Shown in pieces: positions 12,983-23,774 of a stretch of DNA of 31,111 nt. The stretch comes from a virus (Duplodnaviria; Heunggongvirae; Uroviricota; Caudoviricetes). The stretch lies in the IMG/VR virus record IMGVR_UViG_2563366800_000008; one strand, written 5' to 3'. A program made the position numbers and the translations under genes. Position 1 is the stretch's first letter. Every line of letters begins with the position of its first letter. Below the pieces are notes generated by a model, which did no database searches, had not been told where the DNA came from, and saw nothing but the letters and a program-made list of their open reading frames with translations.

Positions 12983-14562
12983 CGACGATGACGCCGGACA
13001 GAACACTCACCAGTCAGTCCGCTGCGGCTATCCTGTCGGGCGAGTTCGACAAAAGCCAGCTACTGCTTCCCTACCAGAAGCGGTGGATTGCCGACTCCTC
13101 TCAACTGAAGATTGCCGAGAAGTCGCGTCGTACCGGTCTGACCTGGGCGGAAGCCGCTGACGCGGCCCTCAACGGCTCAATGTCGGTGGAGGCCGGTGGG
13201 TGCGACACATTCTACGTCGGCACAACGAAAGACATGGCCCGTGAGTTTATTGATGCCTGTGCCATGTGGGCGAAAGCCTATGACCGCGCCGCGTCTGGCA
13301 TTGGTGAAGAAGTGCTGAAGGATGAAGACAAAGACATCCTGGTCTATGTCATCCAGTTCGCCAGTGGCTACAAAATCAAGGCGCTGTCGTCTAACCCGTC
13401 GAACCTGCGTGGTATGCAGGGTAACGTCATCATTGATGAGGCCGCATTCCAGGCTGACCTTGCAGCGGTACTCAAGGCGGCGCTGGCGCTGACAATGTGG
13501 GGGAATAATGTTCGCCTTATTTCCACTCACAACGGTATTGATAACCTGTTTAACACCATCATCACCGACAGCCGGGCCGGGAAAAAACGCTACTCTGTCC
13601 ATCACGTCGATATTGAAACGGCCATTGCAGAGGGGCTGTATCAGCGCATCTGTCAGGTTACAAAAAAAGTCTGGTCTGTGGAGGCCGAAGCGGAATGGCT
13701 GGCTAACCTGCTGAGCGACACGGCCACAGAGGAAGATGCCCGCGAGGAATACTACTGCGAGCCGAAGAACGGCGGTGGCGTCTATATCGCACGTTCCCTG
13801 CGCGAACGTGCGGCCAGAGGTCCGACCGTTGTCCTGCGCTTCACCGGTACGGCTGATTTTAACGCGATGCCGGACGGACTGCGCCGTGTGGAAATGCAGG
13901 AATGGCTGGAGACGGTCGTACTACCCGAACTGGAGAAGCTGCCGCAGAACCTGCGCCACTGTCTGGGGGAGGACTTTGCGCGTAATGGTGACCTGACCGT
14001 GTTTGCACCGGTGACAGTCAACGATGACACGACGCGCAACGTCCCGTTCCTGGTGGAACTCAGCAATGTGCCATTTAAACAGCAGGAGCAGGCGCTGTTT
14101 TATATCTGTGACAGGCTTCCCCGCCGTGACGGCATCAAGCTCGATGCGCGGGGTAACGGTCAGTATCTGGCAGAACAGGCGGCGGAAAAATACGGTGATG
14201 AAGTTGAGCAGGTGCAGCTTTCCGTCAAATACTACCGGGAGAACATGCCACGGTTCCGTGCGGCATTCGAAGACAATGAGCTGGTACTGCCAAAGCATGA
14301 AGATGTGATCACAGACCTCGGCGCAATTCAGCTTTATCGCGGCGTACCGGGCATTGATGATGCACGAACTACCGGCACCGATGGCCGCAAGCGTCACGGT
14401 GACTCTGCTATCGCTATTTTTCTCGGTTTCCTCGCCAGTCGCGAGGACTGCCGCCGTTATGAAGTCCACAAGTTAAAGAAACCTTCCCGCCCCGATGAGC
14501 GTAATGAACACCGTCAGGTCCGCATCACACGGGGTCTTAAAAATCAGCGGGGATTACTCTGA
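12979..14562 (+). CDS. Terminase large subunit (Mu gp28-like)
   Basis: 527-aa ORF, the size and position of Mu gp28; acidic nuclease-like C-terminal half. Confidence 0.85.
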   Translation: MTTMTPDRTLTSQSAAAILSGEFDKSQLLLPYQKRWIADSSQLKIAEKSRRTGLTWAEAADAALNGSMSVEAGGCDTFYVGTTKDMAREFIDACAMWAKAYDRAASGIGEEVLKDEDKDILVYVIQFASGYKIKALSSNPSNLRGMQGNVIIDEAAFQADLAAVLKAALALTMWGNNVRLISTHNGIDNLFNTIITDSRAGKKRYSVHHVDIETAIAEGLYQRICQVTKKVWSVEAEAEWLANLLSDTATEEDAREEYYCEPKNGGGVYIARSLRERAARGPTVVLRFTGTADFNAMPDGLRRVEMQEWLETVVLPELEKLPQNLRHCLGEDFARNGDLTVFAPVTVNDDTTRNVPFLVELSNVPFKQQEQALFYICDRLPRRDGIKLDARGNGQYLAEQAAEKYGDEVEQVQLSVKYYRENMPRFRAAFEDNELVLPKHEDVITDLGAIQLYRGVPGIDDARTTGTDGRKRHGDSAIAIFLGFLASREDCRRYEVHKLKKPSRPDERNEHRQVRITRGLKNQRGLL

Positions 14563-16130
14563 TGTTTAAACAACTAACCGGAGCCGTTCGCCGGCTGCTC
14601 AGTCCTGCCACGGGAGAAGTTGTCACCGTGAACAAGGATGAGCTGAAGCAGACGCAATCCGCAGCGGCGGTAATGAGTGTACGTTCCCCCTCGGCAGGTA
14701 TCAGCGTTGCCAGTACGCTGAGTCCCGGCAGGCTTGCGGGGATCTTACGTAATGCAGCCGATGGTCATGCCCGTGATTTCTTCATTATGGCGGAGGAACT
14801 GGAGGAACGTGACCTCCACTACGCCAGCGTTTTACGTACACGCAAGCTGACGGTTTCCGGGATTGAACCTTCAGTGGAGGCCGGGAGCGATTCCCCGCGG
14901 GATGTGGAAATCGCAGATGATATCCGTAACCTCATGGCGCAACCGCAGGTTCCCGAACTGCTGTTCGATTTGCTGGACGGGCTTGGTAAAGGCGTTGGTG
15001 TCTGCGAAATCCTCTGGAATACCAGCACCACACTCTGGAAACCCCGCGATTATGAATGGGTAGATCCACGTTTTCTGAAACCTGACCGGGAAACGCTGCG
15101 TGATTTCAGACTACTGACGGACAGGAACCCCATCGATGGTGAGCCATTGTCACCGGGGAAATTTATCGTCCATAAGCCCCGCCTGAAATCCGGTCTGCCC
15201 TTGCGTAACGGTCTGGCGCGTCTGGTGGCCGTCATGTATATGCTCAAGTCCTACACAGTCCGGGACTGGTGGGCGTTTGCTGAAAAATTTGGCATCCCGA
15301 TTGTGGTGGGTAAATACGGCAACAACGCCAGCCCGGAACAAATCCAGACATTGCTGGATGCGATTGCATCACTGGCATCAGATGCCGGCTGCGCAATCCC
15401 CGACTCGATGAAACTGGAGATGCAGGAAGCGGCGAGCCGTAACAGCGGTGGCACTCTCTTTAAAGAGATGGCCGAATGGTGTGACGCGCAGATTAGTAAG
15501 GCCGTACTGGGGCAGACCATGACCACGGATGACGGCAGTTCACGTGCTCAGGCGGAAGTCCACAATGGTGTGCGTATGGACATCGCCAAATGGGATGCCT
15601 GGCAGTTATCCAACACGCTGTCTGAATTCCTTGTTCGTCCCTATGTGGATATGAATTACGGACCACAGGAGCATTACCCCCGCGTCGTTCTGCGCATCAG
15701 CAAACCGGAAGATCTTAAGGTTCTGGTGGATGCACTGTCGCCGCTGATTGACCGGGGGATGGAAGTTCAGATGTCAGAGATCCGTGACAAATTCGGGCTG
15801 TCTGAACCGGAGAAAGGCGCAAAAATTCTGACACCAACGGCGCAAATGACTAACCCACTACCGGCCATGAACCGTGAGCAGACTGCGCTTAACCGCAGCC
15901 AGCCTGACGTTCTTGATATGATGGTGGATGAAGCGATGAATGACTGGCAGCGTACCGGCGATGCGTTCACCAGTCCGGTGCTTGAGCTGGCAAAGAAATC
16001 TGACAGCTTTGAATCTTTTCTTGCTGGCCTGCCGGCGCTTCAGAAAGAACTTGATGCGGATGAGTTTGCGACGCAGCTGGCGATGCTCTGTTTTAAAGCC
16101 CGGTCGCTGGGAGATGTAAACGATGGCTAA
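14562..16130 (+). CDS. Portal protein (Mu gp29 family)
   Basis: 522-aa ORF immediately after the terminase; size and position match the Mu portal. Confidence 0.85.
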   Translation: MFKQLTGAVRRLLSPATGEVVTVNKDELKQTQSAAAVMSVRSPSAGISVASTLSPGRLAGILRNAADGHARDFFIMAEELEERDLHYASVLRTRKLTVSGIEPSVEAGSDSPRDVEIADDIRNLMAQPQVPELLFDLLDGLGKGVGVCEILWNTSTTLWKPRDYEWVDPRFLKPDRETLRDFRLLTDRNPIDGEPLSPGKFIVHKPRLKSGLPLRNGLARLVAVMYMLKSYTVRDWWAFAEKFGIPIVVGKYGNNASPEQIQTLLDAIASLASDAGCAIPDSMKLEMQEAASRNSGGTLFKEMAEWCDAQISKAVLGQTMTTDDGSSRAQAEVHNGVRMDIAKWDAWQLSNTLSEFLVRPYVDMNYGPQEHYPRVVLRISKPEDLKVLVDALSPLIDRGMEVQMSEIRDKFGLSEPEKGAKILTPTAQMTNPLPAMNREQTALNRSQPDVLDMMVDEAMNDWQRTGDAFTSPVLELAKKSDSFESFLAGLPALQKELDADEFATQLAMLCFKARSLGDVNDG

Positions 16131-16917
16131 GCCGGTCAGCGATAAATACAGCATTATTCCCCAGGAAGCACTGGCCTGGCTGAAGGCGAAAAAGCTGAAG
16201 CCGGGATTTGATTACCGCGATGTCTGGATGGAAGAACACAGCATCGGCTTTACTGTGGCAAAGATGACGCAGCTTGATTTGCTGGCGGACGTTCGCCAGC
16301 TCGTGGAGGACGCACTGGAGAGCGGCCAGACCTTTGAGCAATTTCGCGAGGTTCTTAAACCTATGCTGGTCAAACGTGGATGGTGGGGACAGCAACTGAT
16401 GGATGATCCACTGACCGGTGAAACCCGTACTGTCCAGCTCGGCAGTGACCGCCGGATGCGCGTTATCTACGACACCAACATGCGGACAGCCCGCGCGGCG
16501 GGACAATGGCAGCGTATTGAACGGACCCAACGGGCAATGCCTTATCTTGTCTACACCGTCGGCCCCTCACGTGAGCACCGTGCGGAGCATCTGCGCTGGA
16601 AGGATGTCTGCCTGCCGGTGGATCATCCGTTCTGGCGAACACACATGGGGCCGAACGGCTGGGGATGCAAATGCGGTACACGGCAAATCAGCCGGTATGA
16701 GTATGAGCAGATGAAGGCCAACGGCACTATCAACACGGAAGCCCCTGAAGTGCGTACGGTCAGATGGGTTAACAAACGCACCGGCGAAGAAGAGACCATT
16801 CCGGAGGGGATTGATCCCGGCTGGGCGTACAACCCCGGAATCTCCCGCAGTCGCGAGCTGGATGAACAGCTACGCAGAAAACAGGACGCGTTTGACAGTC
16901 ATTCGCCACAAAGATAA
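16123..16917 (+). CDS. Head morphogenesis protein (Mu F-like)
   Basis: 264-aa ORF after the portal, the position of Mu F. Confidence 0.7.
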   Translation: MAKPVSDKYSIIPQEALAWLKAKKLKPGFDYRDVWMEEHSIGFTVAKMTQLDLLADVRQLVEDALESGQTFEQFREVLKPMLVKRGWWGQQLMDDPLTGETRTVQLGSDRRMRVIYDTNMRTARAAGQWQRIERTQRAMPYLVYTVGPSREHRAEHLRWKDVCLPVDHPFWRTHMGPNGWGCKCGTRQISRYEYEQMKANGTINTEAPEVRTVRWVNKRTGEEETIPEGIDPGWAYNPGISRSRELDEQLRRKQDAFDSHSPQR

Positions 16918-16958
16918 AAACCATCCCACAACGCGCGTGGCGGCATTAACGATTATTA

Positions 16959-17060
16959 CGTCATGACGGCACGTGAAAAAATCGTTAAACGCGCCACAGC
17001 GTTTTTAAACGTGTTTTAAACGCGGTTTCATGCCGCGTTTACAGTGAAGCCGGTTAATCC
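16959..17060 (+). promoter_or_regulatory. Head-operon upstream regulatory array: palindromes, 9-mer repeats and the shared 16-mer
   Basis: Palindrome CGTCATGACG (16959-16968), CACGTG (16970-16975), three direct TTAAACGYG copies (16985, 17005, 17016) and one inverted copy forming a 9-bp stem (17017-17041), then TGAAGCCGGTTAATCC (17045-17060), 61 nt before the protease/scaffold ATG. Confidence 0.5.
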
Positions 17061-17120
17061 ACCTGCATCCCCGTTCCCCCCCACACTGTCCGGAAGTAAA
17101 CAACGTGACCGGACAACACC

Positions 17121-18077
17121 ATGAACCCGAACAATACGGAACTGCTGGCGCTCTGCTTTCAGCTTCCTGACCTTACCGATGATGCATTGCCGGAATGGCT
17201 GCCGATGATACCGGCGGGAACCTTTACAGGGCGTGATGGCCGTTCGTGGGTGAACAACAATCCGGAAGCCATCATTCGTGCCTCGATGGCTTATCCAAAG
17301 CTCCCGTTTGATATCGAGCACTCTACCGAACTGAAAGGCCCGAAAGGCGATGAAGCCCCGGCTTATGGCTGGATTGACGGCTATCGCGTCAGTGATGGCG
17401 TGGTGGAGGCGCACGTTGAATGGACTGATGACGGCATGGCGCAGCTGCGCGGCAAGAAGTACCTCTATTACAGTCCGGCCTTTCGGTTCACTGCGGACGG
17501 TCAGGTCACCCGCCTGTCCAGCGCCGCGCTGACCAACAAACCCAACCTTGATTTACCCGCACTCAACTCTGAGGAAAACACGATGACCGTACCTGTCCAG
17601 ATTGTGACAGTGCTTGGCCTCGCGGCCACTGCCACAGCAGACGACGCAGTAAAAGCCATTCAGCAGATTAAGACCGCCGAGCAGGTGGCGCTTAACCGCG
17701 CTGAGAATCCTGACCTGACGAAGTTCATTCCGGTAGAGACCCACCAGTTAGCACTTAACCGTGCGGAAAGCGCTGAAAACAAACTCAATGAGATTGCCAT
17801 CAAAGAATCAGAAGCACTGGTGGACAGCGCCATTGAGTCGGGGAAAGTCGCACCGGCCAACCGAGAAATGTATCTCGCCACCTGCCGCTCTGAAGAGGGC
17901 CGAAAGCGGTTTGCTGAATTCGTGAAAGCGGCACCGGTCATTGTCAGCAAGACCACGACGACCAAAAAAGAAGGCACCGAAGGTCATGCCTCGCTTTCTG
18001 ACGAAGACCTCGCGATGTGCCGCCATATGGGCATCAGCGAAGAAGAATTCCTTTCCGTTCGTAAGCAGGAGAAATAA
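17121..18077 (+). CDS. Head maturation protease / scaffold (Mu I family)
   Basis: 318-aa ORF directly upstream of the major head gene; N-terminal protease-like region and Ala/Glu-rich helical C-terminal region as in Mu gpI. Confidence 0.8.
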   Translation: MNPNNTELLALCFQLPDLTDDALPEWLPMIPAGTFTGRDGRSWVNNNPEAIIRASMAYPKLPFDIEHSTELKGPKGDEAPAYGWIDGYRVSDGVVEAHVEWTDDGMAQLRGKKYLYYSPAFRFTADGQVTRLSSAALTNKPNLDLPALNSEENTMTVPVQIVTVLGLAATATADDAVKAIQQIKTAEQVALNRAENPDLTKFIPVETHQLALNRAESAENKLNEIAIKESEALVDSAIESGKVAPANREMYLATCRSEEGRKRFAEFVKAAPVIVSKTTTTKKEGTEGHASLSDEDLAMCRHMGISEEEFLSVRKQEK

Positions 18078-18080
18078 TTC

Positions 18081-18974
18081 ATGCAGGTATCCGCAGAAGT
18101 GTTGCATGCCCTGACCACCGCACTGAGCGCCGCCTTTACCAAAGGTGTTGGTCGGGTCAATCCGCAGTATCGATCCATCGCCACGGTCATCCCCAGTTCC
18201 GGCGCGTCTAACACTTATGGCTGGGTTGAAGACTTCCCGACCATCAAAGAATGGATCGGGGCGCGTCAGCTGAAAGAACTGGCTCAGGCCGGGTATGTCA
18301 TTACCAACAAGACCTGGGAAAACTCGGTCAAGGTCAAGCGCGAAAAAATCGAGGACGATCAGATTGGTCAGTATTCCGTGATTGCTGAGCAGCTTGGCCG
18401 CGATACCACGATTTTCCCGGACAAGCTGTCGTTTGAGTTGCTGTGCAAAGGCTTCGATACGCTGTGCTGGGACGGTCAGTATTTCTTCGATACTGATCAC
18501 CCTGTTGGTACATCCACCAAATCGAACGTTGTGGGCGACCCGGCGACCGATACGGGTGAGCCGTGGTTCCTGATTGATGCAACGCATGCGCTGCTGCCCA
18601 TCATTTACCAGGAGCGCCGTCCGTTTAACTTCATCGCCCTTGATGATCTCACCAGTGAGCGTGTGTTCCTTCAGAACGAATTCGCCTACGGGACCGATGG
18701 CCGCAGCAACGTTGGCTTTGGTTTCTGGCAGACCTGTGTGGGGTCAAAAGCAGCACTGAACAAAGCGAACTATGAAGCCGCTGTCTCCGCAATGATGGGT
18801 ATCACGGACTCTAACGGCGAACCTCTGGGCATGAATCCGACATTGCTGGTCGTCGGTAAGAACAACCGTGGTGCGGCCAAGGCGCTGATTGAAGCGGTTA
18901 CGGCTGATGGTGGTGGTTCAAACATCTATTACAAGGATGTTGACCTGCTGGTCTCACCTTACGTCAAAGCATGA
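18081..18974 (+). CDS. Major head subunit (Mu T family)
   Basis: 297-aa ORF after the protease/scaffold; size and position match Mu gpT. Confidence 0.85.
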   Translation: MQVSAEVLHALTTALSAAFTKGVGRVNPQYRSIATVIPSSGASNTYGWVEDFPTIKEWIGARQLKELAQAGYVITNKTWENSVKVKREKIEDDQIGQYSVIAEQLGRDTTIFPDKLSFELLCKGFDTLCWDGQYFFDTDHPVGTSTKSNVVGDPATDTGEPWFLIDATHALLPIIYQERRPFNFIALDDLTSERVFLQNEFAYGTDGRSNVGFGFWQTCVGSKAALNKANYEAAVSAMMGITDSNGEPLGMNPTLLVVGKNNRGAAKALIEAVTADGGGSNIYYKDVDLLVSPYVKA

Positions 18975-19008
18975 CGTCATTACGTAAAAAATCACGTAAT
19001 GCCGGATT

Positions 19009-19029
19009 AAGGAGGGGTTAACCCTCCTT
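19009..19029 (+). other. Stem-loop after the major head gene, possible attenuator
   Basis: AAGGAGGG (19009-19016) pairs with CCCTCCTT (19022-19029) around a GTTAA loop; only a short T run follows. Preceded by inverted repeat CATTACGT/ACGTAATG (18978-19001). Confidence 0.4.
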
Positions 19030-19057
19030 TAAACCCAACCTGAATGAGGTTTAAAAA

Positions 19058-19651
19058 GTGAGTGGAAAAGTTAATAAGTCAGCCGCTGGTAAGACCGGAA
19101 CCACTTCGGAAAAGAAAGACGACAAAGCAACGAAGGATACGCCTGTCCCGGCGAAACCGGCACCGGTGGCACCAGTTATTACTGATGACAGTCAGGCATC
19201 ACAACCGGCGGTTGCAGCTTCAGATGTCGCATCTGACCCGGAACCTGTACCCGGTGACAATGGAATAACGGTTATCCCGGCCACAGTCAGTCTTGTCACC
19301 ATACCGGGTGAGAACACGGGTGATGACCTGAGAAAACATCTCTGGCAGGAGACGCTGGCACATGACCATTCAGAGGCTGTTCGCATTGCTGAAAATGTCG
19401 TGGTGCTGGAGGTCCGCGCCATTCCGGAAAACGGTTTTCGCCGGGCTGGCCGATTCTGGCCGCACGATACGGTGCATGTGTTTGTCAGCGATAACCCGGA
19501 TGAACAGATTCTGGAAGATGCCGGTGGTAATCCGCTACAGGGGTGCGTGATCAGTACCGACACAGCCCTGCGTCTGAAGGCTGAAAAGATGCTGATTGTG
19601 ACCGAACTGGCGACCGTTGCCGGGACTGAAGCCGACGTGGAGAGCAAATAA
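19058..19651 (+). CDS. Hypothetical virion-associated protein with Ala/Pro/Thr-rich low-complexity N-terminus
   Basis: 197-aa ORF with GTG start and GAGG 9 nt upstream; lies between the major head gene and the gp36-like gene. Confidence 0.55.
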   Translation: MSGKVNKSAAGKTGTTSEKKDDKATKDTPVPAKPAPVAPVITDDSQASQPAVAASDVASDPEPVPGDNGITVIPATVSLVTIPGENTGDDLRKHLWQETLAHDHSEAVRIAENVVVLEVRAIPENGFRRAGRFWPHDTVHVFVSDNPDEQILEDAGGNPLQGCVISTDTALRLKAEKMLIVTELATVAGTEADVESK

Positions 19652-20091
19652 TGGGCATCTACGTAACGCGTGAGGACCTGCTGGCAACCGATGGTGACCG
19701 CGTCTGGAACATGGCAATCAACAAAGAGACGCAGCAGCTCGACGAAGAAAAGATCCAGCGTGCGATTGATGACACTGATGCAGAAATTAATTCCTTTCTG
19801 GCAAAGCGTTATCAGTTGCCGCTGAACCTTCCGAGCCTGCCGAGTCCGTTGCGCCGGGCGGCGGTTTCCATCGCGTTCTACTGGCTGTCTGAACGGGACC
19901 ATCAGATCACCGATGAAATCCAGAAGCGTTACGACGAAGCCCTCCGCACCCTGCGTGAAATCGCCAACGGCACCCGTGACCTCGGTGTGCCGTCTGACAC
20001 CCCGGTCCCTGAGACCGACACCGGAAAGCTGATCATCGTCAGTGAAAACCGTCGTCTGTTCACCCGTAACAACCTGAAAGGGGTGCTGTGA
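19651..20091 (+). CDS. Mu gp36-like head-tail joining protein
   Basis: 146-aa ORF in the Mu gp36 position; start overlaps the upstream stop. Confidence 0.65.
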   Translation: MGIYVTREDLLATDGDRVWNMAINKETQQLDEEKIQRAIDDTDAEINSFLAKRYQLPLNLPSLPSPLRRAAVSIAFYWLSERDHQITDEIQKRYDEALRTLREIANGTRDLGVPSDTPVPETDTGKLIIVSENRRLFTRNNLKGVL

Positions 20092-20633
20092 TGGGAATTA
20101 CTGTCGAGGTCAGAGGAGACCAGAAGTTTCAGGACATTCGCCGTGCGATTGAGCGACTGGCTGACCAGTCGCTGCAACAGGAGCTACTGGAGAGCATTGG
20201 CGCTGTGGTGGAGTCACAGACCCGCCGGCGCATCTCCAGCGAAAAATCCAGTCCTGCCGGCGAGAAATGGCAGGACTGGTCTGACAGCTACGCGAAAACC
20301 AGACACAGCAACCAGAGCCTGTTACAGGGCAACGGCGATCTGCTCGACAGTATCCAGTATGTGGTCAGCGGCTCTGTCGTTCGTGTGGGTACGCCGCTTG
20401 ATTATGGCCGGACGCACAACGAGGGGTTTTCCGGCTCGGTGTCTGTGTCAGCCCATAAGCGACTCATCTCACAGGCATTTGGACGGGCGCTTAAACACGG
20501 GGTATGGCAAACCGTGGGGGCGCATAAACGTATGTTGAACATCCCGCAGCGTGAGTTCCTCGGCCTGTCCTCCGGGAACAGTCAGGAACTGCTGCACGTC
20601 ATCGGGGATTTCTGGAATGAGGTTCTGCAATGA
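20088..20633 (+). CDS. Phage virion morphogenesis protein (gpG/S-like)
   Basis: 181-aa ORF, translationally coupled (ATGA overlap) to the previous gene. Confidence 0.6.
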   Translation: MMGITVEVRGDQKFQDIRRAIERLADQSLQQELLESIGAVVESQTRRRISSEKSSPAGEKWQDWSDSYAKTRHSNQSLLQGNGDLLDSIQYVVSGSVVRVGTPLDYGRTHNEGFSGSVSVSAHKRLISQAFGRALKHGVWQTVGAHKRMLNIPQREFLGLSSGNSQELLHVIGDFWNEVLQ

Positions 20634-21253
20634 ATGAACGTCCGGCGTTCGTCACCCTGGGCAGTACGGTCAGTGCCGCCGAGAATATTGTTAACTGGCT
20701 GAAAGCTGAACTGGAGGGTGAAAAGCAACCTGACCGGGTTGAAAAGGTGGAGCGTCACATCGGTCAGTTTAACACCCCGGATCAGGTCAAAAGCTATATG
20801 TCCGGGCGCGGCGGCAGTATCCGTATTGCGGCCTTACGGGTCAGGAATATCCAGAACCGTCGCGGCATGACCGGACTTGTGACCTGGGCGGCCTACATCA
20901 TGATGGCTGATTTCTGGGGATACCCGCGCGATGCCCGCTGTGAGGTTATTGCCGGACGCCTTGCCCGTCGTATCAGTTGTCGTGAAGCGGCTGCGGGCAT
21001 GAAGGCTGAGCGTATGGCTGAGAACATCGCCGCTGAAAACCTCTGGTCGGGTGGCCTGGACAATCTCGGGATCACCATGTGGGCCGTTACATGGGAACAG
21101 GAATTCCGTCTTGATGATGAGATAGACCTGTCCACGCTGCCGGAATTCCTGCGACTGGGGGCAACCATTGTGGTGAACGGACAGCCTGTAAGCGATGAGC
21201 CGCAAATCATAAACGTAAGAGAAGGACAGACTGATGACAAAGAAAATGATTAA
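20630..21253 (+). CDS. Mu gp37-like protein
   Basis: 207-aa ORF in conserved position before the tail sheath gene. Confidence 0.6.
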   Translation: MNERPAFVTLGSTVSAAENIVNWLKAELEGEKQPDRVEKVERHIGQFNTPDQVKSYMSGRGGSIRIAALRVRNIQNRRGMTGLVTWAAYIMMADFWGYPRDARCEVIAGRLARRISCREAAAGMKAERMAENIAAENLWSGGLDNLGITMWAVTWEQEFRLDDEIDLSTLPEFLRLGATIVVNGQPVSDEPQIINVREGQTDDKEND

Positions 21254-21422
21254 GCCATCACGGGCGGGCCTGCTCGTTCGTAAGGCTGATGGCAGTCACC
21301 TTGCCGCTGATGGCGAGACGCTGCCGGTCAATGCGTACTGGCTGCGCCGTGAAAAAGAAGGCGATGTGAATATCACTGAGCCACCGAAGTCCCGCACACC
21401 TAAAACCGATAAGGAGGCATGA
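21234..21422 (+). CDS. Small Mu gp38-like protein
   Basis: 62-aa ORF with AGAAGGA upstream; immediately precedes the sheath gene. Confidence 0.5.
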   Translation: MTKKMIKPSRAGLLVRKADGSHLAADGETLPVNAYWLRREKEGDVNITEPPKSRTPKTDKEA

Positions 21423-22900
21423 TGTCCATCGGTAATATTCCTGATGATATTCGTGTCCCGCTGGTCTGGATCGATATCGATAACTCTATGGCGATGAGTG
21501 CCGCGCCGGCACAGTCCCGAAAAATTCTGGTTGTGGGTCAGCAGCTCGCCAGCGCGACTGCTTTACCGTTGACGCTGAACCGTATTACTGGCGACAGCAT
21601 GGCTGATGAACTCTATGGCCGTGGCTCCATGCTGGGTGAAATGGCAAAGATGGTCCGTATGGCCAACAGTTACACCGAGATGTATGCGATGGGACTGGAA
21701 GATATTGCCCAGGGTGCCGCGGCGAGTGCCACAGTCACGATGCTCGGCACCGCCACTCAGGCTGGTACGCTGGCACTGATGATCAATGGCGTATCTGTCC
21801 AGGTCGGGGTCAGCATCGGTGATGAAGCGGCAACCATTGCCGGCAATATCATCGCTGCAATTACCGCAAAGCCTGCCACTCAGGTTACTGCCACAGCAAA
21901 AGCTGAAGCTGCTGCAACGGTAGTGCTGACCGTGAAGTGGAAAGGCGTCACGGGAAATGACAGTGATGTGCGCCTGAACTATTACGCCGGAGAAAAAACA
22001 CCTGCCGGCATCAGTGCAACACTGACCGCATTTTCGGGTGGTACGGGGACGCCGGATATTCAGTCTGTTGTCGCGGCGCTGGGAGATGACTGGTACACGG
22101 ATATCATCTTCCCGTACCTCGATGCCCAGAGCCTGAACACCATTCGTGACGAACTGCTGGAACGCTGGGGGCCGCTCAAGATGATGGAGGCGCTGTTGTG
22201 GTCTGCTTATCGCGGAACACATGCCCAGAGCGGAACATTCGGACATACCCGCAATGACTGGCTGATTTCCTGTATCGGCACCAACATCGCACCTGAACCG
22301 TCATGGATGTGGGCCGCCAGCTACGGTGCAACGGCGGCATACCAGCTTGCCATAGATCCGGCCCGTCCTCTCCAGACTCTGATCCTGACAGGCATCAAGC
22401 CCCCCGCTCGCGGTATCCGCTGGGATATGCCAGAGCGTAACCTGCTGTTGCATGACGGTATCGCCACGCACTTTGTTGATGCCGGAGATAACGTCTGTAT
22501 TGAGCGCGAAATCACCATGTACCGCGTAAACCGCTATGGCGATACGGACATTTCATACCTCGATGTGCAGTCGCCAGCAACGCTTGGCCGTATCCGTTAT
22601 GTCATCAAAAACCGTTTCACCAGTCGCTACCCACGCCACAAGCTGGCGGGTGATGACGTGCTTGATTTGCTCGATGCCGGTCAGCCAGTCATGACGCCAA
22701 AAATCTGTCGGGCTGAGTTACTGGATATTGCGCTGACTGAGCTTATCCCGGCAGGTCTGGTGGAGGATTTCGAAGATTATAAAGACACGCTTGATGTCAC
22801 CATCGACAGCAAAGACCCAAACCGTCTGAACTTTATCTGCCACCCGAATCTGGTGAATCAGTTGCGCGTTCTGGCCGGTCTCATCCAGTTCAAACTTTAA
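21419..22900 (+). CDS. Contractile tail sheath protein (Mu L family)
   Basis: 493-aa ORF followed directly by a small tube-like gene, the sheath/tube pair of myovirus tails. Confidence 0.85.
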   Translation: MMSIGNIPDDIRVPLVWIDIDNSMAMSAAPAQSRKILVVGQQLASATALPLTLNRITGDSMADELYGRGSMLGEMAKMVRMANSYTEMYAMGLEDIAQGAAASATVTMLGTATQAGTLALMINGVSVQVGVSIGDEAATIAGNIIAAITAKPATQVTATAKAEAAATVVLTVKWKGVTGNDSDVRLNYYAGEKTPAGISATLTAFSGGTGTPDIQSVVAALGDDWYTDIIFPYLDAQSLNTIRDELLERWGPLKMMEALLWSAYRGTHAQSGTFGHTRNDWLISCIGTNIAPEPSWMWAASYGATAAYQLAIDPARPLQTLILTGIKPPARGIRWDMPERNLLLHDGIATHFVDAGDNVCIEREITMYRVNRYGDTDISYLDVQSPATLGRIRYVIKNRFTSRYPRHKLAGDDVLDLLDAGQPVMTPKICRAELLDIALTELIPAGLVEDFEDYKDTLDVTIDSKDPNRLNFICHPNLVNQLRVLAGLIQFKL

Positions 22901-23665: not shown

Positions 23666-23774
23666 CCTCTCTCAGCGTTTCGATGTTAACCGGCTTGAGC
23701 AACTGCCCCTACGGCAGTTGCTTATTCAGGTCAGGCAACTGAGGAAGCAATATGACAAACCGCCTAAGCACTGA
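23589..23774 (+). CDS. Possible frameshift extension of the tail assembly chaperone
   Basis: ORF in the +1 frame overlapping the chaperone's last 77 nt and ending just inside the tape-measure gene; G-runs at 23600-23605 and 23615-23620 lie in the overlap. Confidence 0.3.
   Translation: MTCWGRLPNGGDMMPMAAALNLLLINLSQRFDVNRLEQLPLRQLLIQVRQLRKQYDKPPKH

Follow-up and report, generated by a model that had tools for sequence, protein, structure and literature searches.

Canonical intrinsic terminators combine a G+C-rich stem-loop with a U-rich tract of ~7–9 nt located immediately 3′ of it, and leaky versions of such terminators follow phage structural genes, T7 T-phi being positioned after gene 10 and phiX174 T_F after capsid gene F. 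Other intercistronic stem-loops are protective, including the Rhodobacter puf hairpin and the malE-malF hairpin, the latter being a REP hairpin. In E. coli, a genome-wide set of protective 3′ structures, mapped by Dar & Sorek (2018; PMC5927463), marks the boundaries of operon segments that decay differentially, for example malE-malF; conservation of these structures extends across the enterobacteria, and they may lower translation of the flanking gene as well.

The junction described here lies directly 3′ of the major head gene in a 31,111-nt stretch of phage DNA that was analysed as a whole (the window). The original prediction held that two hairpins at this junction could set head-protein stoichiometry and that the second of them may act either as a partial terminator or as an RNA-stabilising structure that keeps capsid mRNA above the mRNA of downstream genes. 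Between these options, the RNA-stabilising one appears to fit the anatomy of the locus best.

The gpT junction of a Mu-like prophage

A 1201-bp query containing the junction (window positions 18500–19700) is 100% identical to a Mu-like prophage of E. coli ECONIH4, and this prophage is carried by only 5 of the 5426 complete E. coli genomes. The major head gene matches the Pfam family of Mu gpT (Table 1), and its copy in the identical ECONIH4 prophage is annotated as "Mu-like prophage major head subunit gpT family protein". The stop codon of the gene, TGA (18972–18974), is followed by an 83-nt spacer having the sequence cgtCATTACGTaaaaaatcACGTAATGccggattAAGGAGGGgttaaCCCTCCTTtaaacccaacctgaatgaggtttaaaaa. 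This spacer is the sole non-coding gap within 5.8 kb of packed late genes (17121–22900), in which the other junctions are 3 nt or overlaps. Read-through of the spacer is obligatory, because essential head-completion, sheath, and tube genes follow and leave no room for a promoter; an effect of the hairpins on downstream expression would thus be partial at most, as had been guessed. A scan called no σ70-like promoter on the + strand of the spacer, and inspection by eye revealed no convincing conserved −10 element in the spacers of relatives.

Table 1. Positions of the late genes, the gpT spacer, and the predicted RNA structures (window coordinates)
Feature	Position	Strand	Details
Portal gene	14562–16130		
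gpF-like head morphogenesis gene	16123–16917		
gpF–gpI gap	16918–17120		203 nt
Protease/scaffold gene (gpI)	17121–18077		
Major head (capsid) gene (gpT)	18081–18974	+	Pfam PF10124 Mu-like_gpT, E = 2.1e-109
H0	18961–18978	+	ACGUCA(aagca)UGACGU; straddles TGA stop; −5.5 kcal/mol, z = −3.2
Intercistronic spacer	18975–19057	+	83 nt; from ORF list and RefSeq annotation
H1	18978–19001	+	CATTACGT-aaaaaatc-ACGTAATG; 8 bp, 8-nt loop; −7.0 kcal/mol, z = −6.6
H2	19009–19029	+	AAGGAGGG-gttaa-CCCTCCTT; 8 bp, 5-nt loop; −14.2 kcal/mol
H3 (inverted repeat)	19028–19055	+	UUUAAACC(12 nt)GGUUUAAA; 8 bp; in spacer MFE
Shine-Dalgarno sequence (GAGG)	19046–19049	+	(near-)invariant in relatives
GTG start of next gene	19058–19060	+	(near-)invariant in relatives
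Gene after gpT	19058–19651	+	197-aa product; starts GTG
gp36-family adaptor, virion-morphogenesis protein, two small ORFs	between gene after gpT and sheath gene		
Tail sheath gene	21419–22900		

Several known classes of element do not account for the spacer. The spacer is present in one copy per genome and is confined to the five prophage-carrying E. coli genomes (of 5426), and its single-copy state rules out a REP/BIME element, a dispersed repeat, or a MITE. An Rfam scan of 18500–19500 returned noise below threshold (the best match scored 19.9 bits, with E = 0.86, where the gathering threshold is 79). Stimulation of stop-codon read-through or of frameshifting by the hairpins was rejected, since the frame continues past the TGA for just 12 codons until a TAA at 19008.

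Other parts of the window also contain structured or unusual sites. Two RefSeq pseudogene fragments lie on either side of the Mu-like prophage (~971–1500; L001 2472–2711 with 37614–37877), and the prophage appears to have inserted inside a tail-assembly gene of a resident lambdoid prophage. In the early region of the prophage, a perfect 9-bp hairpin, GTTCTTTTC-ctaatgca-GAAAAGAAC (2477–2502), is located between a small helix-turn-helix (Ner-like) gene and the transposase gene. The gpF–gpI gap is non-coding, is conserved across enterobacterial relatives, and contains a long inverted repeat (16937–16957 with 16977–16997), hairpins at 16987–17004 and at 17017–17041 (TAAACGCGG-tttcatg-CCGCGTTTA), and three TTAAACG repeats with spacings of 21 and 11 bp. 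This gap is syntenic with the Mu G–I gap, where the PI late promoter and the strong gyrase site of Mu are located, and the gpT spacer was accordingly rejected as a strong gyrase site analogue. In L100, a Klebsiella-type relative, the equivalent gap upstream of the protease gene measures 535 nt, compared with about 200 nt elsewhere, and has an AT-rich, moron-like insert between a conserved promoter-like block and the protease gene. The heptamer TTTAAAC occurs 14 times in the whole window (2.8 ± 1.9 expected; 0 of 100 shuffles as high), with copies in the gpF–gpI gap (17004 and 17015) and in the gpT spacer (19028 on the + strand and 19049 on the − strand), and GTTTAAAC-like sequences form the apex of many relatives' hairpins. 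Further downstream, a perfect 10-bp hairpin with no T run, AGCAACTGCC-cctac-GGCAGTTGCT (23698–23722), lies in an 87-nt spacer between a tail-assembly gene and the tape-measure gene and is a second candidate for a U-tract-less intercistronic hairpin after high-copy tail genes.

Both of the originally predicted stem-loops, H1 and H2, are present directly 3′ of the major head gene, within the exact limits of the spacer; two further pairings, H0 and H3, had been missed. The whole 83-nt spacer folds with an energy of −29.6 kcal/mol, compared with −14.5 ± 2.7 kcal/mol for dinucleotide shuffles (z = −5.7; 0 of 200 as good). Perfect hairpins with stems of 8 bp or more number 14 in the window as a whole (3.2 ± 1.5 in shuffles), of which two are in the gpT spacer and three in other intergenic gaps. 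As RNA, H2 is AAGGAGGG(guuaa)CCCUCCUU, with five G-C pairs in its 8-bp stem, and can be extended to 10 bp with one bulged U (19007–19032). It is among the weakest hairpins of its family (−13 to −14 kcal/mol), and, because its energy places it merely in the top ~2.7% of 40-nt windows in the 7-kb neighbourhood, the case for H2 rests on comparison with relatives. H1 is AT-rich as RNA, CAUUACGU(aaaaaauc)ACGUAAUG, and is made of two T[T/C]ACGTAA octamers. H3 pairs the DNA arms TTTAAACC (19028–19035) and GGTTTAAA (19048–19055), has an inner alternative, AACCU/AGGUU (19037–19051), and covers part of the Shine-Dalgarno sequence of the next gene. H0 would be melted by terminating ribosomes and lacks its 3′ arm in three relatives (L095, L096, and L097); it is probably incidental.

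Covariation and strand preference of H2 among gpT relatives

We surveyed 162 loci with gpT homologues, drawn from species-representative genomes and from IMG/VR, phage, Klebsiella, and E. coli records, which comprise 136 distinct junctions. Almost all gammaproteobacterial junctions (capsid identity of at least 50%) carry a hairpin, with energies of −9 to −24 kcal/mol, and at 53 of 78 loci the gpT junction ranks by stability in the top 1% of 40-nt windows in its own ~6-kb locus. The gammaproteobacterial hairpin ends 14–41 nt (mostly 14–30 nt) upstream of the next start codon, and in the enterobacterial clade this distance is rather constant, at 17–29 nt. The stem sequences are unrelated from lineage to lineage. 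In particular, the stem is GTTACAGCGGG/CCCGCTGTAAC in Klebsiella-type phages, CTTTATCGGGTG/CACCCGATAAAG in the Serratia type, GGCCG/CGGCC in Grimontia, and UGGCGG/CCGCCA in Vibrio and Shewanella, while phage Mu has AAAAGGCGGT-tcag-ACCGCCTTTT (RNA AAAAGGCGGU-ucag-ACCGCCUUUU) after gene T. Among the distant, alphaproteobacterial relatives, about half have a 10–14-nt junction without a hairpin; Mu-type head operons can evidently do without the element. In Pseudomonas phage DMS3 (41% capsid identity), the 66-nt spacer contains only a weak 5-bp hairpin.

From 46 distinct enterobacterial junctions, aligned by sequence alone with MAFFT, RNAalifold recovers only the H2 helix, with compensatory changes in 7 of 7 pairs and with no second conserved helix at the junction. 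A covariance-model alignment, which was fitted to the H2 structure and with which the MAFFT-only result and the slid controls concur, has 92.9% of cells paired, compared with 34–52% in slid controls. In this alignment, both-side (compensatory) changes are present in 9 of 11 pairs, and the covariation score is 0.57, against at most 0.11; 0 of 500 shuffles reach the observed value. Turnover of the stem can be followed within the window's own clade (94–100% capsid identity), in which AAGGAGGG/CCCTCCTT is changed to AAGGAGGA/TCCTCCTT in L091 by replacement of G-C with A-U. The stem of L095 is ACAGGAGGG/CCCTCCTGT, in which AAGG/CCTT has become ACAGG/CCTGT, and the stem of L096 is GTTACAGGCAGG/CCTGCCTGTAAC, a bridge towards the Klebsiella-type stem.

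These substitutions bear on whether H2 has any present function, or is the relic of an ancestral terminator or a by-product of palindrome-generating mutation. Decay of the U-tract in the enterobacterial clade and the position of the window's H2 among the weakest hairpins of the family are compatible with such an origin. A neutral relic, however, would lose pairing, and many independent compensatory changes hold pairing at 93% here while the flanks diverge, making absence of function highly improbable.

Mismatches were counted in 53 distinct hairpins by outward extension from the loop, with G.T and A.C mismatches treated alike. The internal mismatches comprise 24 G.T and 3 A.C (binomial 5e-5, which, as with strand p-values generally, is only indicative, because the hairpin sequences are phylogenetically related). 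When both strands are folded, G-U pairs number 29 on the + strand and 9 on the − strand, and the + strand fold is the stronger in 28 cases and the − strand fold in 14. The direction of these asymmetries is nonetheless clear and shows selection on the sense-strand RNA and not on duplex DNA. H2 is, on this comparative evidence, an intercistronic RNA stem-loop that is under selection as a sense-strand structure.

H1 and H2 are not equivalent: H1 is shallow and clade-specific, with a sequence-conserved core, whereas the stem of H2 covaries. H1 is found only in the closest relatives (capsid identity of at least ~71–85%), is lost or rearranged below that level, and is a clade-specific companion of H2. 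Among 10 close relatives, 88.8% of H1 cells pair (17–55% in slid controls) and three pairs have both-side changes, with an A-U to G-C switch at the base of the stem that passes through A.C intermediates. The H1 core, UUACGU/ACGUAA, is invariant in close relatives, whereas the H2 stem is rewritten in the same genomes. The constancy of the core hints at sequence-specific recognition, but could equally reflect shallow divergence.

The conserved H1 core would be in keeping with a reading at the DNA level, in which the palindromes, especially H1 with its TNACGTNA octamers, would be binding sites for a phage or host regulator. Four of the 11 octamers in the window (TTACGTCA, TGACGTCA, TTACGTAA, and TCACGTAA) lie within 41 bp (18959–18999), and two more distant relatives, L098 and L099, retain ACGTAA/TTACGT copies after the capsid stop in other arrangements. 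For TGACGTCA/TTACGTAA, MetJ-like tandem 8-mers or sites of other host factors could be considered, but only as speculation. The whole-window enrichment of TNACGTNA is, however, marginal (11 against 5.6 expected; 2 of 100 shuffles as high), the + strand has no called σ70-like promoter, and, for H2, the asymmetry of G.T and A.C favours single-stranded sense RNA over duplex DNA. The presence of a similar 14-mer in the gpF–gpI gap would also favour a DNA site, but the gpF–gpI copy varies even among the closest relatives and is replaced by GATACGATGACGC in other relatives. A regulatory motif common to the gpF–gpI gap and the gpT spacer (ATTACGTCATGACG vs ATGACGTCATTACG, plus ACGTRAAAAAATC) was rejected as a probable coincidence. 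Overall, a DNA-level function of the palindromes is very doubtful.

The apex of most enterobacterial hairpins follows a pattern, GGG-N-(G)UU(U)AA(A)-N-CCC, with UUAA at its centre, while the lower stems turn over by compensatory change. The apical UUAA is kept in 29 of 35 enterobacterial hairpins, compared with 1 of 18 marine ones. This retention and the invariant UUACGU/ACGUAA core of H1 are the grounds for supposing that the enterobacterial hairpins might form a specific RNA operator, with H1 and H2 being recognised by an RNA-binding factor of phage or host origin that would control translation or decay at the capsid/gp35 junction, for example through feedback from head assembly. A generic exonuclease barrier leaves the apical UUAA unexplained; common descent can explain its retention. 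We regard a specific operator as distinctly unlikely.

Possible effects on termination, decay, and initiation at the junction

The short T run that had been noted after the second hairpin is indeed present: TTTAAACC follows the last G-C pair of H2 and contains 3 T in 8 nt. In the RNA, the run is UUU, with two of the residues inside the stem, and is followed by AAACCC. H2 thus shares the G+C-rich stem of a canonical intrinsic terminator and lacks the U-tract, and a terminator scan makes no call at H2. T residues were counted in the 8 nt that follow each hairpin's G-C core. All 35 distinct enterobacterial hairpins have fewer than 4 T, Mu has 4 T, and 5 of 18 marine gammaproteobacterial versions have 5–6 T together with an upstream A-tract and are canonical, bidirectional-looking terminators. 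Canonical A-tract/stem/U5–7 terminators are located at the homologous site in Marinomonas, Rheinheimera, L072, and L154. As judged from these motifs, a single homologous site is occupied by real terminators in some members of the gpT-junction family and by bare hairpins in others.

A leaky Rho-independent terminator, at which a fraction of RNA polymerases would stop so that fewer transcripts extend over the downstream genes, would be in keeping with the classical position and sense orientation of H2, with the four U residues after the Mu hairpin and the canonical terminators of several marine relatives at the same place, and with the precedents of phiX174 and T7, in which expression is tuned after structural genes. 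The composition of the window (just UUU, then AAACCC), the count of 0 in 35 for the enterobacterial versions, and the absence of a call by the terminator scan all stand against leaky termination, and the "partial terminator" option of the original prediction is correspondingly weak. Moreover, selection maintains the hairpin in the absence of a U-tract, indicating that the selected property in the enterobacterial clade belongs to the stem-loop itself and not to termination. Leaky termination is therefore an unlikely explanation, and H2 would be at best a very weak terminator.

Processing by RNase III was considered and rejected. A T7-type RNase III site requires roughly 20 bp of double-stranded RNA, or two helical turns, and the stems at the gpT junction, at 8–10 bp in the window and 11–16 bp in relatives, are too short.

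The most probable role of H2 is that of a 3′ decay barrier or a translational insulator, to the advantage of capsid expression; we estimate the chance of this reading to be about even. Late transcription would continue across the spacer, since no other promoter is obvious for the head-completion and tail genes downstream. An endonuclease would cut in the poorly translated, AU-rich downstream segment, and 3′-to-5′ exonucleases would stall at the stem-loop, such that the capsid cistron would outlive the distal transcript. In addition, translation of the next gene would be uncoupled from that of the capsid gene, and kept lower, by the structure in the spacer, by partial occlusion of the Shine-Dalgarno sequence, and by the use of GTG as start codon. 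It is from this anatomy that we infer an effect of H2 on mRNA half-life and protein ratios. It is not obvious what would be gained by destabilising the distal transcript, because the sheath and tube genes located downstream are also needed in high copy. We found no literature on transcript 3′ ends at the T junction of Mu or Mu-like phages.

The product of the gene after the spacer belongs to phrog_10420 and is syntenic with Mu gp35. Its N-terminal half is hypervariable, of low complexity, rich in Ala, Pro, Lys, and Thr, and probably disordered; its C-terminal ~85 aa form a conserved domain (GFxRxGRFWP...VHVFVSD...RLKAE). The product has no significant Pfam or NCBIfam match, the match to FluMu_N (Mu gp35/HI1506) being below threshold (E = 0.25), compared with 1.8e-10 for Mu gp35 itself. 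PHROGs, a PDB sequence search, BLASTP against Mu gp35, and a homologue search gave no identity for the product beyond phrog_10420, and the homologues are all annotated as "hypothetical".

The initiation region of this gene bears on a reading that places the effect of H2 in translation. According to this reading, the hairpin would prevent ribosomes that finish on the heavily translated capsid cistron from moving on and re-initiating, and the hairpin, a C/U-rich tract pairing with the Shine-Dalgarno sequence, and the GTG start would together give low, independent translation of the gp35-like gene, with mRNA levels that may be equal. The distance of 17–29 nt between the end of the enterobacterial hairpin and the start codon corresponds to the edge of the ribosome footprint. 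Across 46 distinct relatives, GAGG and the GTGAGTG start show little or no variation. Distant relatives that have no hairpin have tightly coupled junctions of 10–14 nt, and selection on the sense-strand RNA is compatible with an effect on initiation. The predicted probability that the Shine-Dalgarno sequence is unpaired is 0.27 in the window and ranges from 0.05 to 0.88 among relatives. Thus, the sequence is predicted to be mostly paired in the window and in many relatives (0.05–0.4), but the occlusion is inconsistent, with values of 0.87–0.88 in L095 and L096, and, as noted above, RNAalifold gives no conserved second helix. An insulator or initiation modulator of this kind is rather unlikely in our estimation. 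The mechanism may coexist with a decay barrier, since the two are not mutually exclusive.

If the preferred reading of H2 as a decay barrier or insulator were confirmed, the gpT junction would provide a comparatively validated case of a phage tuning its head-protein ratios post-transcriptionally by means of a U-tract-less stem-loop and not by a terminator. The gpT-junction family offers a natural series for dissecting hairpins, extending from terminators (terminator-like in Mu and canonical in marine phages) to the bare hairpins of the enterobacterial clade. In the engineering of Mu-like phages or of capsid expression cassettes, H2 should be kept as a candidate regulatory element. The kind of element is already known, and general concepts are unchanged.

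Comparison with described elements

H2 resembles T7 T-phi and phiX174 T_F in being located immediately after the major capsid gene and in being subject to obligatory read-through, and the terminator-like hairpins of Mu and some marine relatives at the homologous site extend the resemblance. H2 differs from T7 T-phi and phiX174 T_F in the U-tract, which is absent from the window and from all 35 enterobacterial versions.

The hairpin after Mu gene T (NC_000929, 20056–20121) is the positional counterpart of H2. The gene order (I, T, gp35-like, gp36) is the same, a hairpin separates the head gene from its downstream neighbour in both cases, and an AU-rich stretch and then a Shine-Dalgarno sequence follow. 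The Mu hairpin carries no feature annotation in NC_000929, and we found no literature in which it is described or tested. The Mu sequence itself is unrelated to that of H2 and consists of GGCGGU/ACCGCC flanked by A4 and U4.

The comparison with protective structures of the malE-malF type yields differences in copy number and setting and similarities in architecture. Specifically, H2 is single-copy and phage-specific and is not a dispersed REP, and lies in a phage late operon with high-copy sheath and tube genes further downstream. Like the malE-malF type, H2 is a stable sense-strand stem-loop without a U-tract, positioned 3′ of the more-needed cistron within a polycistronic unit. The cistron downstream of H2 may likewise initiate weakly, its GTG start being conserved and its Shine-Dalgarno sequence being predicted as partly paired in many, but not all, relatives. 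Structure rather than sequence is conserved in orthologous loci, with selection acting on the RNA strand.
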